Source: Escherichia phage BP32. Taken from it: 64,000 bases of DNA. The position numbers were made by a program, and so were the translations under genes. This document shows, piece by piece, positions 3,721 to 57,079 of this stretch. The notes beneath the pieces are model-generated. The model made no database searches, was not told the origin of the DNA, and worked only from the letters and a program-made list of their open reading frames with translations. The stretch lies in sequence record OR906198.1; one strand, written 5' to 3'. Numbering within the stretch: the first letter of the stretch is position 1; every line of letters begins with the position of its first letter.

Positions 3721-5778
3721 ATGGAACTTATTACAGAATTATTTGACGGCGCTTCGGCGCCGGTTGTTAACTTAAATCCTAAGCATAAAATACCTCAAAT
3801 TTTTGCTATTCAAGCCGGTGAAGAAAGCGTGCTTCCTGGATTTAGATTTTGTACATACACCTCTGGCGGTGATACAAATAAAAACGTTAAGCCAGGCGAT
3901 AAAATGATGCATATCGTAATGATAGGCGTTAATGAGAAACTATCATTAGTTAAACTTAAAAACTTGGGTGGAAATCCAATTGGTGTCATTAATGCGGTTT
4001 TTGATACTGCTCTTCAAACAATGAAGCAGTATAAAATTGACGCATGTCTATTCCGCGTACTAAAGAGTAAAACAAACGGTGCAGGTCGGCAAATGCAAGT
4101 TATTGCCGACCGTTTAGTACGTACTAAAGGAGCAGGTCGATATGTTCTTTTAAAAGAAATCTGGGACTATGATAAAAAATATGCATATATTATGGTTTAC
4201 CGTAAAAATGCCAATTTAGAAGACATTCCAGGTGTACCTCCTATTTCAACTGAGTTATTCACAAAAGTTGAATCAAAGGTTGGTGATGTTTATGTAGACG
4301 TTAAAACAGGTAATGCTGTTCCTAAAGCTGTCGCTGTTGCTGCTTCTATTGCTTTAGAAAATGATAAGCGCACGGATCAAGCTGTTATTCAGAAAACTAA
4401 AATTAGTCGTCGATTAGCAGCTCAAGCTCAATATTCTACTGTCGATGCTTCACTTCAGGGTGATAGCTTCGCTGCTAAGAAATATCAAGAGTTTGAATCT
4501 AAAGTTCCGGTATATAAAGCAGAAGGACCAATGAACTCTGGCGTTATTCAGGTTGGTTCAAACTTCAGCAAAGGAGCTATCGGTGGTATGAGAAGTGCTT
4601 CTCGTTTTAAATCTAGTGATTATGAACTCGAAAGCTTCCGAAATCATATTGCATTGGCTCATGCACGTTTACGTGATCCATCTATCAAGTTACAGAGCGA
4701 TATAACATATCAAGGTTCTCAAGAATATTTAAAGAATAAAGAATTTTTTGATTATAAAACTGATAAAATTTTAAGCGATCTTGCTGACATTAATATTTCT
4801 AATAGCTTTGATGTTATTAAGAAAATTGTCAATGATTTAGTTAAAGGTTCTAAAGCCACACCAGATGAAAAGGTAGCTATTGTTCAATTTGTCATGAATG
4901 GCGTTTATAAATTGATTAATGAGTCTGCTTCTCAAGCGTATGAATATGCAAGTACTGAAGTAACTCCAAAAGGATTAACTCAGGCTGAGTCTGATGTAAT
5001 TGAAGATTATTGTGCAGATTCATATGTTGAAATGAACTCGTTCCTTTTAGGTAAACCGGATTCTACCCGTGAAGAATATATGGAACGAGCTATTAAACAC
5101 ATCGAGACAATGGATTCTGCCTTTGCCAAAGGGTCAGTTCTTCCTCCAGGAACTACGCTTTACCGTGGCCAAGAAGTTACCTTTAAAACTTTACGTCATA
5201 ATATTGAAAATAAAATGTTCTATTTCAAGAACTTCGTATCCACATCACTTAAACCAAATATCTTCGGTGAGTATGGTAAAAACTATATGGCCCTAGATGA
5301 TTCCAGTGCAGTATTTTCTGGTGAAGGAGAAGGTTCAGTTGATGCTGAAGATTTAATGCATATGGGTAGTCATTCTGCATATGCTAATGAAGATGCTGAA
5401 ACTAGCGTGGGTATGGTAATTAAAGGAGCTGAGCGAATCAAAGTTATCGTTCCAGGTCATTTATCAGGATTTCCATCAGAAGCTGAAGTTATTTTACCGC
5501 GTGGAATTTTGCTGAAGATTAATAAAGTGAGTACGTACATGATGAAAGAAACTGCTTATAACAAGTATCTAATAGAAGGCACAATCGTTCCTCCTTCTGA
5601 ACAATTAGAAGAATCGGTATATGACGGCGACCATCTAATGGAAACTGGTGAAGTTCGTCCAATGGCTGGATTTAATCAATTCCTTGTAGAAGAATCAAAA
5701 GAAGAGGAAAACGAAGTTTCTCAAATCTTGGCTTCTTTGGTTAACATCAACGGAATGTCTAAAAAGTTCAAAATGTAG
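3721..5778 (+). CDS. second Alt-family ADP-ribosyltransferase paralog (685 aa)
   Basis: Conserved N-terminus MELITELFDG...KIPQIF...PGFRFCTYTSGGDTN...GDKMMHIV; ART motifs YRGQ, FVSTSL, EAEVILPRG; central region diverges from copy 1. Confidence 0.8.
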   Translation: MELITELFDGASAPVVNLNPKHKIPQIFAIQAGEESVLPGFRFCTYTSGGDTNKNVKPGDKMMHIVMIGVNEKLSLVKLKNLGGNPIGVINAVFDTALQTMKQYKIDACLFRVLKSKTNGAGRQMQVIADRLVRTKGAGRYVLLKEIWDYDKKYAYIMVYRKNANLEDIPGVPPISTELFTKVESKVGDVYVDVKTGNAVPKAVAVAASIALENDKRTDQAVIQKTKISRRLAAQAQYSTVDASLQGDSFAAKKYQEFESKVPVYKAEGPMNSGVIQVGSNFSKGAIGGMRSASRFKSSDYELESFRNHIALAHARLRDPSIKLQSDITYQGSQEYLKNKEFFDYKTDKILSDLADINISNSFDVIKKIVNDLVKGSKATPDEKVAIVQFVMNGVYKLINESASQAYEYASTEVTPKGLTQAESDVIEDYCADSYVEMNSFLLGKPDSTREEYMERAIKHIETMDSAFAKGSVLPPGTTLYRGQEVTFKTLRHNIENKMFYFKNFVSTSLKPNIFGEYGKNYMALDDSSAVFSGEGEGSVDAEDLMHMGSHSAYANEDAETSVGMVIKGAERIKVIVPGHLSGFPSEAEVILPRGILLKINKVSTYMMKETAYNKYLIEGTIVPPSEQLEESVYDGDHLMETGEVRPMAGFNQFLVEESKEEENEVSQILASLVNINGMSKKFKM

Positions 5779-54290: not shown

Positions 54291-54400
54291 ATATGCTTTA
54301 AGAATTATTTGTTATTATTAACTCATATCGCACTGATTAATACCCTCTATCATCAAGGGTTCTTGTTAGAGAGCCTTTGTTAATAATTGGGAATTATATT

Positions 54401-55009
54401 ATGGATACTAAATTAGCTGAAATTTTTGAAGGAAAACATCCAAATTTTAGTACAGGAAAGCTGAAAGACAAAATAATAAAAGAAAATATTTTTCCATATG
54501 AGTGTGCAATTTGTAAAATTTCAAAATGGCAAAATAAGCATATTGTTCTGCAATTAGACCATATTGATGGAAATAACAAAAATCATCTTAAATCAAATTT
54601 AAGATTATTATGTCCAAATTGCCATTCGCAAACTGATACTTTTGCTGGTAAAAATATTAAAAATAATAAAAAGCGTTATAATGTTAGTGATGAAGAAATT
54701 TTAAACGCACTATTAAATTCGGCTACTATATCATCTGCAATTACTTCATTAGGTTTAAGTAAAGGCGGAAACTATAAAAGATTCATTAAAATTGCTAATG
54801 ATAATAAATTATATCATTTACTGGTAAATATTAATGAAAAGATTTTAACTGATGAAATTTACGAAGAATTAGTTAAAATCGATTATTCTAAATTTGGATG
54901 GGTTAGTAAAGCTGCTAAAATAATAGGTATAAGCCCACAAAAAGCTAGAAAATGGATAGAACGAAAGTGCCCAGAATTGATAGAACAATCTTTTTCACGT
55001 AATAAATAA
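54401..55009 (+). CDS. HNH homing-endonuclease-like protein
   Basis: CxxC...HIDGNNKNH...N...LCPNCH HNH/zinc-finger motif; lysine-rich C-terminal region; start taken at the ATG (MDTKLAE) rather than the track's TTG. Confidence 0.7.
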   Translation: MDTKLAEIFEGKHPNFSTGKLKDKIIKENIFPYECAICKISKWQNKHIVLQLDHIDGNNKNHLKSNLRLLCPNCHSQTDTFAGKNIKNNKKRYNVSDEEILNALLNSATISSAITSLGLSKGGNYKRFIKIANDNKLYHLLVNINEKILTDEIYEELVKIDYSKFGWVSKAAKIIGISPQKARKWIERKCPELIEQSFSRNK

Positions 55010-55015
55010 TATAGA

Positions 55016-55102
55016 GCGAGAATGGTCAAATTGGTAAAGGCACAGCACTTAAAATGCTGCGGAATGATTTCCTTGTGGGTTCGAGTCCCACTTCTCGCAC
55101 CA
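55016..55102 (+). tRNA. tRNA-Leu (anticodon TAA), type II, CCA encoded
   Basis: Acceptor GCGAGAA/TTCTCGC; anticodon stem CAGCA/TGCTG, loop CTTAAAA; long variable arm; T-loop TTCGAGT. Confidence 0.85.
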
Positions 55103-55107
55103 AATTT

Positions 55108-55181
<74 letters not shown>

Positions 55182-55191
55182 ATTTAATTTA

Positions 55192-55265
55192 CTCCGTGTA
55201 GCTCAGTTTGGTAGAGCGCCTGATTTGGGATCAGGAGGTCCAAGGTTCAAATCCTTGTATGGAGA
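55192..55265 (+). tRNA. tRNA-Pro (anticodon TGG), no encoded CCA
   Basis: Acceptor CTCCGTG/TATGGAG; anticodon loop TTTGGGA; T-loop TTCAAAT; only 2 nt before tRNA-Ser. Confidence 0.8.
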
Positions 55266-55267
55266 CT

Positions 55268-55352
55268 GGAGGCGTGGCAGAGTGGTTTAATGCACCGGTC
55301 TTGAAAACCGGCAGTCGCTCCGGCGACTCATAGGTTCAAATCCTATCGCCTC
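55268..55352 (+). tRNA. tRNA-Ser (anticodon TGA), type II, no encoded CCA
   Basis: Acceptor GGAGGCG/CGCCTCC; anticodon stem CCGGT/ACCGG, loop CTTGAAA; long variable arm. Confidence 0.85.
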
Positions 55353-55359
55353 CGTAATT

Positions 55360-55437
55360 TCGCTGATTTAGCTCAGTAGGTAGAGCAACTCACTTGTAAT
55401 GAGAAGGTCGGCGGTTCGATTCCGTCAATCAGCACCA
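55360..55437 (+). tRNA. tRNA-Thr (anticodon TGT), CCA encoded
   Basis: Acceptor GCTGATT/AATCAGC; anticodon loop CTTGTAA; T-loop TTCGATT. Confidence 0.8.
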
Positions 55438-55438
55438 A

Positions 55439-55515
55439 GGCCCTGTAGCTCAATGGTTAGCAGCAGTCCCCTCATAAGGGAAAGGTTACCAGTTCAAATC
55501 TGGTCTGGGTCACCA
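55439..55515 (+). tRNA. tRNA with CAT anticodon (Ile-lysidine type or Met), CCA encoded
   Basis: Acceptor GGCCCTG/CTGGGTC with one mismatch; anticodon loop CTCATAA; T-loop TTCAAAT; the T4 tRNA at this position is annotated Ile. Confidence 0.7.
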
Positions 55516-55524
55516 AATTAATTA

Positions 55525-55611
55525 GGGGAGTTATCCCGTAGAGGTAGCGGTGTGGACTGTAAATCCATTGTCATTGCGACTCGGGTGGTTCGACTCCACC
55601 ACTCCCCACCA
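55525..55611 (+). tRNA. tRNA-Tyr (anticodon GTA), type II, CCA encoded
   Basis: Acceptor GGGGAGT/ACTCCCC; anticodon stem GTGGA/TCCAT, loop CTGTAAA; long variable arm; T-arm GGTGG-TTCGACT-CCACC. Confidence 0.7.
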
Positions 55612-55657
55612 ATTTATGACTCGTCGTGAGACGCTCAGTTCTTTATTAGGGACTGAT

Positions 55658-56323
55658 ATGCATTTTTATCTTTATAAAATAACAAATAAAATTAATAATA
55701 AAATTTATATTGGTGTGCATTCTACCGAAAATTTAGATGATGGATATATGGGTTCTGGTAAATTATTAAAAAGAGCCCAAGATAAGTATGGTATAGAAAA
55801 TTTTTCTAAAGAAATATTAGAGTATTTTGATGATAAAGAATCTATGCTTGAAGCCGAGAAAAATATTGTCACAGAAGAGTTTTTAAATAGACCAGATGTG
55901 TATAATTTAAAACTTGGCGGTGAAGGTGGATGGGACCATATAAATATTCCTGGGATGCTAAACCAGAAGAAAGATGCTAGCTTAAAAGGAGCTAAATCGT
56001 TTAAATCACGTTTTGAAAATGATATTTTACTTCAAGAAAAATATCGTAAAATTGGTTCAAATGTATTTAAACGTTTGTGGTCAACTCCTGAATACAAGGA
56101 AAAATTTTTAAATAATAGCAGATTTTTAAATAAGCATCATACTCCTGAAACTATTAATAAAATGAAAGAAATTCACGCTAAAAATAATCATCAGAAAGGA
56201 GAAAAGAATTCCCAATTTGGTATGATGTGGATTCATTCATTAGATGAAAAAGTTTCTAAACGTATTAAGAAAACTGACCCAATTCCAGAAGGATGGTTTA
56301 AAGGTCGAAAAATGAAATTTTAA
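55658..56323 (+). CDS. segB: GIY-YIG homing endonuclease (SegB-like) inside the tRNA cluster
   Basis: N-terminal GIY-YIG module YLYKITNKINNKIYIGVHS...GYMGSGKLL; start placed at the ATG (55658) after tRNA-Tyr, not the track's 55550 which overlaps the tRNA. Confidence 0.75.
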   Translation: MHFYLYKITNKINNKIYIGVHSTENLDDGYMGSGKLLKRAQDKYGIENFSKEILEYFDDKESMLEAEKNIVTEEFLNRPDVYNLKLGGEGGWDHINIPGMLNQKKDASLKGAKSFKSRFENDILLQEKYRKIGSNVFKRLWSTPEYKEKFLNNSRFLNKHHTPETINKMKEIHAKNNHQKGEKNSQFGMMWIHSLDEKVSKRIKKTDPIPEGWFKGRKMKF

Positions 56324-56326
56324 TTA

Positions 56327-56402
56327 CGGGGCATAGCTCAGAAGGAAGAGCAAGGACCTTCTAAGTCCTAGGTCGTAGGTTCGATCCCTACTGCCTCGAC
56401 CA
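56327..56402 (+). tRNA. tRNA-Arg (anticodon TCT), CCA encoded
   Basis: Acceptor CGGGGCA/TGCCTCG; anticodon stem AGGAC/GTCCT, loop CTTCTAA; T-loop TTCGATC. Confidence 0.85.
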
Positions 56403-56418: not shown

Positions 56419-56769
56419 ATGAAAGGTAATGTTTATTTAGTAGTTCATGATTTAACATTCTATTTTAATCACAATGATACTGTTATTTCTGAACGTGTAA
56501 TTAATTTACTTTATCAGCATGCAGATTATGTTTATGTCGAAAACGAATACGGTCATTGGCAATTTCTCAAAAATCGTTCATTTGGTTTAGATGGTTACGA
56601 ATATTTTGAACGTAAAGACCTTTTAGATAAAATTCCGTTATCTACACAATATCAAAATCATAAGTCTTTATATAAATGCCGTCCAATTCGAAATGCTGAA
56701 TCTGCGTATGAAGCAATTGATTTATGGCGTAAACGCCGTGAACAGATTGATGCATTAAAAGAATATTAA
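56419..56769 (+). CDS. hypothetical protein (116 aa)
   Basis: ORF with RBS GAGGAAAA; no recognisable motif. Confidence 0.5.
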   Translation: MKGNVYLVVHDLTFYFNHNDTVISERVINLLYQHADYVYVENEYGHWQFLKNRSFGLDGYEYFERKDLLDKIPLSTQYQNHKSLYKCRPIRNAESAYEAIDLWRKRREQIDALKEY

Positions 56770-57079
56770 GAAGCCGGGTCGCTACCGGTAAGTCGTCGGA
56801 CTGATGTTCCCTGGGTAAGGACTGGCATTAACAAATCTTTACGATCTGTTAATGTCCCCTTACATCACAGCAGAAACGGCGCACCGAATTATCGATTCGA
56901 GGAAATATCTTTGCCGTAAGCCGAGTAGCGTTTTTGACGGAACGTTCGGATATGGTCGAGATATGGCCTTTTAAAATATTGAGTAGCGTCAACTGCTTAA
57001 TAACCGGGTTCGAATCCCGGCGTTTCGTACAAACACTTGCCTTAGCAGGTGGAACCCCGACAAGGTTGCCGCAAGGCTT
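56770..57079 (+). ncRNA. candidate stable small RNA(s), possibly the T4 species 1/2 (rnaC/rnaD) equivalents
   Basis: About 310 nt, GC-richer than surroundings, no convincing ORF; tRNA-like T-arm CCGGG-TTCGAAT-CCCGG; internal repeat GAGTAGCGT; ends at a strong terminator; lies just after tRNA-Arg as in T4. Confidence 0.35.

Follow-up and report, generated by a model that had tools for sequence, protein, structure and literature searches.

Why does a gene for an HNH endonuclease stand at the head of the transfer RNA (tRNA) cluster of Escherichia phage BP32, where most of its T4-like relatives encode tRNA-Gln? The locus lies in a stretch of 64,000 nucleotides (nt) of sequence record OR906198.1, called the window below, and positions count from its first letter unless another locus is named. 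A sequence-only reading of the window had noticed an open reading frame (ORF) for a protein of about 200 amino acids (aa), with the motif CxxC...HIDGNNKNH...N...CPNCH, that ends 7 nt before tRNA-Leu, and had described the gene as abutting the start of the cluster. The gene does adjoin tRNA-Leu but more than abuts the cluster, as it occupies the place of tRNA-Gln. With a rough probability of 0.6, a free-standing, intron-less HNH homing endonuclease gene has replaced tRNA-Gln, and its product cuts or nicks the DNA of relatives lacking the gene, which is then copied into them by repair. The replacement is made up of the following features.

54388-54396, + strand: 5′ stub of tRNA-Gln, 9 nt, TGGGAATTA, from alignment with T4 and PST tRNA-Gln
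54397-55012, + strand: HNH cassette, 616 nt, standing in for 62 nt (positions 10-71) of tRNA-Gln
54401-55009, + strand: coding sequence of the HNH endonuclease, 202 aa and stop, from the ORF listing, PHROG and homologue alignment
55010-55015, + strand: spacer TATAGA between stop codon and tRNA-Leu, 6 nt, from sequence and junction alignment

In T4 and in Yersinia phage PST, tRNA.2 is followed by a non-coding stretch of ~100 nt and then by tRNA-Gln, the first tRNA gene of the T4 cluster, which abuts tRNA-Leu. BLASTN homology between BP32 and T4 stops at 54396 and restarts at 55013, and the ORF occupies 609 of the 616 nt inserted between these points. According to the junction alignments, the first nine bases and at most the last three are all that remain of tRNA-Gln; the last three nucleotides of the spacer (AGA here, AGC in other carriers) may be its former 3′ end. 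The cassette junctions are identical in all sequences aligned, including the comparisons with T4 and PST. ARAGORN detects no tRNA-Gln elsewhere in the 64-kilobase (kb) window, and tRNA-Gln is not among the eight annotated tRNAs of the carrier phage Lutter. Judging from these alignments, the direction of change, from tRNA-Gln to HNH gene, is clear, because the stub is a tRNA-Gln remnant and because the cluster of another genus also begins with a homologous tRNA-Gln. From the last base of the stop codon, 55009, it is 7 nt to the first base of tRNA-Leu(UAA) (55016-55102, ARAGORN), so that the distance given at the outset holds, with a spacer of six. The GC content of the cassette is 24-26%, against 30-38% in neighbouring ORFs, and that of segB, a second endonuclease gene in the cluster, is similarly low.

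A candidate intermediate allele holding both tRNA-Gln and the HNH gene was considered in BYEP02, whose locus is 77 nt longer, and was rejected, as the extra DNA contains no tRNA: its 77 nt repeat in tandem the segment of promoter and leader that precedes the HNH gene (locus L014, 1101-1254). Duplicated pieces of tRNA-Pro and tRNA-Ser appear further on in the BYEP02 alignment; these and the leader duplication may be real or may be assembly artefacts.

The ORF is not a chance one, because identical copies of the protein occur in ~58 phage records and its family comprises >5,500 relatives. The mechanical ORF listing, like one GenBank annotation, opens the frame at an upstream TTG (54377-55009, + strand). 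This start is ruled out: the ATG at 54401, the annotated start in most records, aligns with the N-termini of the three closest full-length homologues, whereas the TTG sits in DNA common to HNH-less phages; hence the ATG is the real start. The resulting 202-aa translation confirms the motif, as C35-A-I-C38, D53-H54-IDGNNKNH, N66 and C71-P-N-C74-H75. In an alignment of 25 sequences, with relatives 37-68% identical, C35, C38, H54, N66, C71, C74 and H75 are invariant, and the catalytic residues D53-H54, N66 and H75 are unchanged across the 25 homologues. The two invariant CxxC pairs, C35xxC38 and C71xxC74, constitute a predicted structural zinc site that would place the protein in the McrA / endonuclease VII-like subgroup. 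Two regions can be delimited.

54488-54640, + strand: HNH / zinc-finger core, predicted catalytic, residues ~30-80 (strand, strand, helix)
54689-54967, + strand: two predicted three-helix modules, helix-turn-helix-like, residues 97-134 and 151-189 (AlphaFold2)

The AlphaFold2 model places strands at residues 51-54 and 67-70, followed by a helix at 72-75, with a predicted local distance difference test score (pLDDT) >90 across the stretch; mean pLDDT is 88.8 for the whole protein and 87.3 for the N-terminal domain, which has a predicted template modelling score (pTM) of 0.72. By analogy with other modular homing endonucleases, the C-terminal helical modules are probably the DNA-recognition part. 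This half of the protein has conserved G166, W167 and P179, and its Pfam helix-turn-helix matches at residues 164-192 are weak (E 0.017-0.12, all below cut-off). Many relatives from IMG/VR (loci L016-L095) are short proteins of 140-160 aa that end just past the HNH core (...QTDTYCGKNK*), and the next tRNA begins 0-8 nt after the end of their ORF. Set against the two C-terminal helical modules of the BP32 protein, this indicates that domain order varies within the clade.

The assignment of the protein to the HNH family is secure on the grounds of homology and motif, in agreement with the sequence-only reading of an HNH nuclease with zinc-binding cysteines. Besides the invariant motif, there are matches to HNH-annotated PHROG families (5e-124 for the protein's own family, 2.5e-29, 1e-11 and weaker ones) and to the HNH part of the NCBIfam IscB model (4.8e-6), and a Foldseek search of the predicted viral structures in BFVD returns 19 matches at E<=1e-3, mostly named HNH. 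The Pfam profile proposed as a check recognizes the relatives, with HNH in 22 of 25 at E<=0.01 (best 1.4e-6) and HNH_3 in 16 of 25; it does not formally recognize the BP32 protein itself, as detailed below. BLASTP aligns residues 16-184 of the BP32 protein with residues 71-210 of phage T5 HegA, the endonuclease F-TflIV, at 35% identity over 170 aligned columns (78 bits, E 2e-22), and tblastn also matches hegA of T5 and BF23. A superfamily review lists F-TflIV among the site-specific HNH nucleases, citing Akulenko et al. 2004 (PMC5714182). For the BP32 protein, nuclease activity is presumed from its sequence.

BP32 is a Tequatrovirus, and the 4.5 kb around the HNH gene match hundreds of Tequatrovirus (T4-like) phages at 92-97% identity, within a total of at least 1127 matching records, many of them Tequatrovirus. 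Gene order is that of T4: genes 3, 1, 57A and 57B, internal proteins, tRNA.4, tRNA.3, tRNA.2 and the tRNA cluster. The HNH gene and its junctions are found at the same site in ~63 phage records, while a 261-nt probe spanning leader, tRNA-Gln and tRNA-Leu (coverage >=80%) identifies ~446 records with intact tRNA-Gln-tRNA-Leu there; in carriers this probe aligns as two pieces, with the tRNA-Gln part absent. The HNH allele is thus present in about one-eighth (~12%) of Tequatrovirus records, a rough proportion as the collection holds GenBank/RefSeq duplicates. Carriers span several species of the International Committee on Taxonomy of Viruses (lutter, cm8, snuabm and ecombl75), and their cluster layouts vary, with or without segB, with or without tRNA-Asn and tRNA-His, and with a 160-aa ORF after tRNA-Ser in some. 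The synteny comparison suggested from the sequence alone therefore finds the gene present or absent at exactly one site among Tequatroviruses, which supports the view of a mobile gene of the homing-endonuclease type. Two carriers, Killian (locus L007, 2993-3508) and CM8 (L011, 593-1108), have an additional 171-aa ORF that separates tRNA.2 from the tRNA promoter; this ORF occurs neither in the BP32 window nor in T4.

The cassette is nearly uniform on diverged backgrounds. Among nine carriers, its nucleotide diversity (pi) is 0.007, with 15 variable sites in 618, compared with 0.041 in the 108-nt leader immediately 5′ of it, 0.046 in tRNA.2 and 0.23 in tRNA.3. The ORF is uninterrupted in every carrier examined. 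The protein is identical in most carriers, so the low diversity of the cassette is not merely due to purifying selection on amino acids. Several leader haplotypes are common to carriers and non-carriers, in the latter preceding an intact tRNA-Gln; the match is exact for the S2_01 type and has one mismatch for the Lutter type. Such common haplotypes indicate that several backgrounds existed before they acquired the cassette, whether by insertion or by recombination, and that exchange took place no more than ~30 nt from its 5′ end.

A comparable exchange has taken place in another phage genus. The closest non-identical homologue (P0002, 68% identity) is encoded in a syntenic region of a contig close to Klebsiella phage PWKp18 (Marfavirus). 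There, the cassette begins right after tRNA-Gln and, relative to PWKp18, replaces ~95 nt holding the next tRNA, annotated as tRNA-Asn. In another T4-like contig, an 11-tRNA cluster is immediately preceded by a homologue at 58% identity (P0004), and T5 hegA sits 24 nt after tRNA-Ile2, inside the T5 tRNA region and on the tRNA strand. In the Klebsiella-phage contig, an element of ~59 nt comes right after the stop codon of the HNH homologue (element at L003, 4607-4665; L015, ~4376-4434). It begins with GCGAGACCAAGCTGGTAA and ends with ...CTCGCA, is also present in the HNH-less PWKp18, resembles the 5′ end and D-arm of T4 tRNA-Leu, and is called by neither ARAGORN nor Rfam; it may be a tRNA-Leu remnant or another structured RNA.

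This residence in tRNA clusters extends to the relatives at large. Eighty IMG/VR loci encoding relatives were scanned for tRNAs in 2-kb flanks: 74 contain at least one tRNA, 54 at least three, and 441 of the 471 tRNAs are on the strand of the nuclease. Density is ~1.4 tRNAs per kb, compared with 0.14 per kb over the whole BP32 window, which serves as baseline. In 28 of the 80 loci a tRNA starts <=25 nt from the stop codon or overlaps it. tRNA-Leu(UAA) accounts for 10 of these 28 stop-adjacent cases against 6.3% of same-strand tRNAs (binomial p ~5e-6, an indicative value only, like all p-values here, as the loci are not independent and L043 equals L044), and any tRNA-Leu accounts for 14 of the 28 against a background of 12.9%. 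The survey shows that the BP32 layout, with its stop six bases before tRNA-Leu(UAA), is typical of the clade. A wider proposal, which we put forward tentatively and with some doubt, is that this HNH clade is specialized for phage tRNA clusters, using tRNA genes as homing sites and entering by replacement of a dispensable tRNA, which removes its own target. Its putative homing sites may include above all the 5′ edge of tRNA-Leu(UAA), together with the gene that immediately precedes it.

Two other observations come from the surveyed loci. In three viral contigs from one metagenome, a 302-aa HNH homologue is followed, after 110 nt, by a tRNA whose anticodon has four bases (taaa) according to ARAGORN (L062, 2013-2085; L063 and L064, 2755-2827); this tRNA may be frameshift-suppressor-like or a mis-call. 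In L069 (949-1335, - strand), a gene for transfer-messenger RNA with its tag peptide lies beside a 10-tRNA cluster, with the HNH relative on the opposite strand.

How would such a gene be expressed and spread? The gene, its motifs and homology, the replacement junctions, presence and absence, the near-identity of the cassette across diverged backgrounds and the residence of the clade in tRNA clusters were all computed directly, whereas the target site, homing and the details of transcription and processing are what we infer from them. Two features upstream of the stub bear on expression.

54291-54318, + strand: likely MotA-dependent middle promoter of the tRNA cluster, a sequence pattern read by eye
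54319-54387, + strand: predicted transcribed leader, preceding tRNA-Gln in HNH-less phages, from alignments

Middle promoters of T4 carry a MotA box, TGCTTtA, ~12 bp upstream of a -10 element TAnnnT. Directly after the tRNA.2 stop, BP32 has ATATGCTTTAAG, with the MotA box TGCTTTA at 54294-54300, then a 12-nt spacer and the -10 element TATTAT at 54313-54318. This segment is identical in T4 and PST upstream of tRNA-Gln, and the matching segment of Lutter is annotated as a promoter (L001, 3002-3028); a sigma-70 promoter scan gave nothing convincing upstream on the + strand. The HNH gene would therefore use the middle promoter from which tRNA-Gln and tRNA-Leu are normally expressed. A Shine-Dalgarno-like element occurs only in the tRNA-Gln stub, as GGGAA at 8-12 nt 5′ of the ATG; it may act as a weak ribosome-binding site. 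As no terminator-like site was found between the ORF and tRNA-Leu, the HNH mRNA would be continuous with the tRNA precursor and form its first cistron, and the RNase P cut at the 5′ end of tRNA-Leu would free the mRNA, setting its 3′ end 6 nt past the stop. Expression of the gene may be low, as has been reported for segB (PMC2330249).

The protein would combine a zinc-stabilized HNH catalytic core with two helix-turn-helix modules that recognize DNA. When a relative lacking the gene infects the same cell, the protein would nick or cut the DNA of that relative in or near the tRNA-Gln/tRNA-Leu region, and recombinational repair would then copy the cassette in. The carrier would be immune to its own nuclease because the replaced 62 nt of tRNA-Gln are gone.

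Several results weigh against this mechanism. Activity, cleavage site and behaviour in crosses are predictions for the BP32 protein. Its own Pfam HNH match (PF01844, residues 45-77, E 0.0053) scores 17.3 bits, below the gathering cut-off of 21.4, and weak zinc-ribbon matches accompany it. Sequence searches of the PDB with two profiles gave marginal HNH matches, the best at E 0.025 (the ZRANB3 HNH domain), mixed with spurious cytochrome c552 matches to CxxCH. Foldseek of the N-terminal domain against the PDB gave no significant match (best E 0.14, template modelling score <=0.48), with nearly all top matches being HNH proteins (ScoMcrA, EcoKMcrA, Cap5, PacI, Gme HNH and Cas5-HNH); the whole-protein search was uninformative, the model being multi-domain with pTM 0.47. 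In the leader and flank alignments there is no long co-conversion tract, and the flanks vary right up to the junctions. The DNA beside the cassette is no less diverse than DNA further away, and the spread of the cassette could be the work of ordinary recombination; the lack of a tract is compatible with a cleavage site inside or beside the replaced segment and equally with later recombination. Sampling of related isolates and duplicate GenBank/RefSeq records could explain part of the low diversity. The likely promoter and the possible ribosome-binding site are assigned from consensus only. Finally, a leader hairpin covering GGGAA and AUG (54326-54407, + strand; -23.7 kcal/mol) is not significant (z -1.79, 10 of 200 shuffles folding as well), and translational control by it is only a hint.

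The alternative that best survives retains an active, site-specific HNH nuclease or nickase and gives it a main role other than homing, namely to exclude or damage co-infecting phage or host DNA, or to introduce specific nicks as proposed for the F-Tfl enzymes of T5, with the location kept for suitable expression from the tRNA promoter. It can draw on the closest characterized relative, T5 F-TflIV, which is a site-specific endonuclease and not a proven homing enzyme, on the missing co-conversion tract, and on 100% conservation of the protein in the ~58 records. Yet only a small minority of Tequatrovirus records carry the gene, and they do so in place of a functional tRNA gene; a selfish element accounts more simply for such patchy spread across species, and the independent exchange of a tRNA for an HNH gene in a Klebsiella phage points to site-directed mobility. 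We consider a principal role outside homing unlikely.

Somewhat less probable again is a passenger gene that does not move or is decaying; in this view, an insertion made long ago has scarcely any nuclease activity or none, and spreads and persists only through the frequent ordinary recombination of T-even phages. Breakpoints within ~30 nt of the cassette, diverse flanks, the weak Shine-Dalgarno-like sequence and the possible hairpin over the start codon would all suit a passenger. However, no catalytic or zinc residue has been lost, the carriers examined all have an unbroken ORF, and an old neutral insertion is expected to be as diverged as its flanks, whereas the cassette varies at only 15 sites in 618 nt. 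It is quite improbable that the protein is no nuclease at all but a DNA- or RNA-binding regulator, combining zinc finger and helix-turn-helix, of expression or processing of the tRNA cluster: the sub-threshold Pfam HNH score, the weak zinc-ribbon and helix-turn-helix matches and the position of the gene directly before tRNA genes in many phages could be read in this way, but catalytic D-H, N and H are invariant across the family, relatives include proven nucleases, and the pattern of presence and absence does not resemble what a regulator shows. A group I intron or intron-encoded endonuclease inside tRNA-Gln, brought to mind by a cassette within the former tRNA-Gln coordinates and by the annotation of some phage tRNA-region homing endonuclease genes as 'group I intron endonuclease', is refuted by the sequence, as only 9 + 3 nt of tRNA-Gln are left and the tRNA cannot be rebuilt, the ORF fills 609/616 nt, and Rfam detects no group I intron at the locus.

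The cluster carries a second endonuclease gene, of another type.

55016-55611, + strand: tRNA cluster Leu(UAA), Gly, Pro, Ser, Thr, Met(CAU) and Tyr, without tRNA-Gln (ARAGORN, Rfam)
55655-56323, + strand: segB, GIY-YIG homing endonuclease gene, between tRNA-Tyr and tRNA-Arg
56327-56402, + strand: tRNA-Arg(UCU), last canonical tRNA of the cluster (ARAGORN, Rfam)

The segB product matches Pfam GIY-YIG at 26.8 bits (cut-off 22.6), and the gene is 97.7% identical in DNA to T4 segB. The two homing-endonuclease families, HNH and GIY-YIG, that the sequence-only reading had seen in the cluster are therefore both there, and its view of the cluster as a mobile hot spot is supported. CM8 offers a second example of a nuclease gene at the position of a tRNA gene: a 'SegB-like' ORF (L011, 2035-2643) is flanked there by tRNA-Gly and tRNA-Ser, at the point where tRNA-Pro is found in other Tequatroviruses, and no tRNA-Pro was detected in this stretch of CM8. 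In BP32, tRNA-Arg is separated from the stable-RNA region by a 116-aa ORF (56419-56769, + strand), at a place where T4 has only ~80 nt; the ORF has a counterpart in Lutter (L001, 4956-5300) and no NCBIfam match, and represents another presence/absence difference in the cluster. Further on, ARAGORN calls a 94-nt tRNA-Lys(UUU) (56937-57030, + strand) that is homologous to T4 DNA past tRNA-Arg and gives no Rfam tRNA match at E<=0.1. The T4 region downstream of tRNA-Arg contains the tRNA-like stable RNAs C and D, and the BP32 element is probably one of these rather than a true tRNA-Lys.

Among known systems, T5 HegA/F-TflIV is closest in sequence. Homology covers the HNH core and the C-terminal helix-turn-helix, the CxxC...DH...N...CPNCH motif is common to both, and each gene is located within a phage tRNA cluster, in the same orientation as the tRNAs. 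HegA differs in having an N-terminal extension of ~70 aa and in lacking the middle helical module; hegA follows a tRNA, whereas the BP32 gene precedes one, and T5 belongs to the Demerecviridae. In genomic situation the counterpart is T4 SegB, likewise encoded by a free-standing homing endonuclease gene of the T-even tRNA cluster that is present or absent among relatives, with tRNA genes lost or exchanged along with its presence. SegB has the GIY-YIG fold rather than HNH, resides at the Tyr/Arg site rather than at Gln/Leu, and has been characterized experimentally, whereas the BP32 HNH protein is known from sequence; for SegB, cleavage at sequences of tRNA genes and a driving role in the inheritance of the region have both been proven (PMC2330249). 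The MobA-E and Hef genes are also free-standing HNH genes of T-even genomes with a patchy distribution (PMC2988022), but their products are not close relatives of the BP32 protein by sequence, and they lie near nrd, alpha-gt and similar genes instead of in the tRNA cluster. In tblastn at E<=1e-5, only 238 phage records match, comprising the ~63 Tequatrovirus carriers and mostly other phage groups, and hundreds of further Tequatrovirus records, which like T4 presumably have Mob-type genes in most cases, are unmatched. By sequence, the BP32 protein groups with T5 F-TflIV rather than with the T4 Mob proteins.

The occurrence of HNH genes in phage tRNA clusters, as an ordinary kind of mobile element, is already documented. 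HNH homing endonucleases have been noted in the tRNA clusters of many lytic phages and proposed to diversify tRNA repertoires (PMC10194208, PMC5966550, PMC6409571). These reports, on mycobacteriophage clusters and the T5-like phages AAS21/Key, describe HNH genes in tRNA arrays, and the IMG/VR survey agrees with them. RefSeq already names the gene 'HNH endonuclease', and one record has 'H-N-H endonuclease F-TflIV'. A literature search returned no description of the replacement of tRNA-Gln in Tequatroviruses, of the Klebsiella exchange or of the abutment of stop codon and tRNA-Leu.

Free-standing homing endonucleases are a main source of mosaicism and marker exclusion in T-even phages, and phage tRNA sets are now studied as counter-measures to host defences that cleave tRNAs. 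Against this background, hundreds of sequenced phages have, at this one site, either of two natural and cleanly distinct alleles, tRNA-Gln or the HNH gene. Because of this allele pair, the parallel in a Klebsiella phage and a proven SegB in the same cluster, the locus is a convenient system for asking whether homing into tRNA genes is a property of F-TflIV-type HNH enzymes, and at what cost a phage loses a tRNA. It is a clear example of selfish genes reshaping phage tRNA clusters and leaves current concepts unchanged. If specialization of the clade for tRNA clusters were true, these elements would directly set the tRNA content of phages, about one-eighth of Tequatrovirus records being without tRNA-Gln, and the typical ending of the ORF 0-8 nt before a tRNA would mean that RNase P also forms the 3′ end of the nuclease mRNA.

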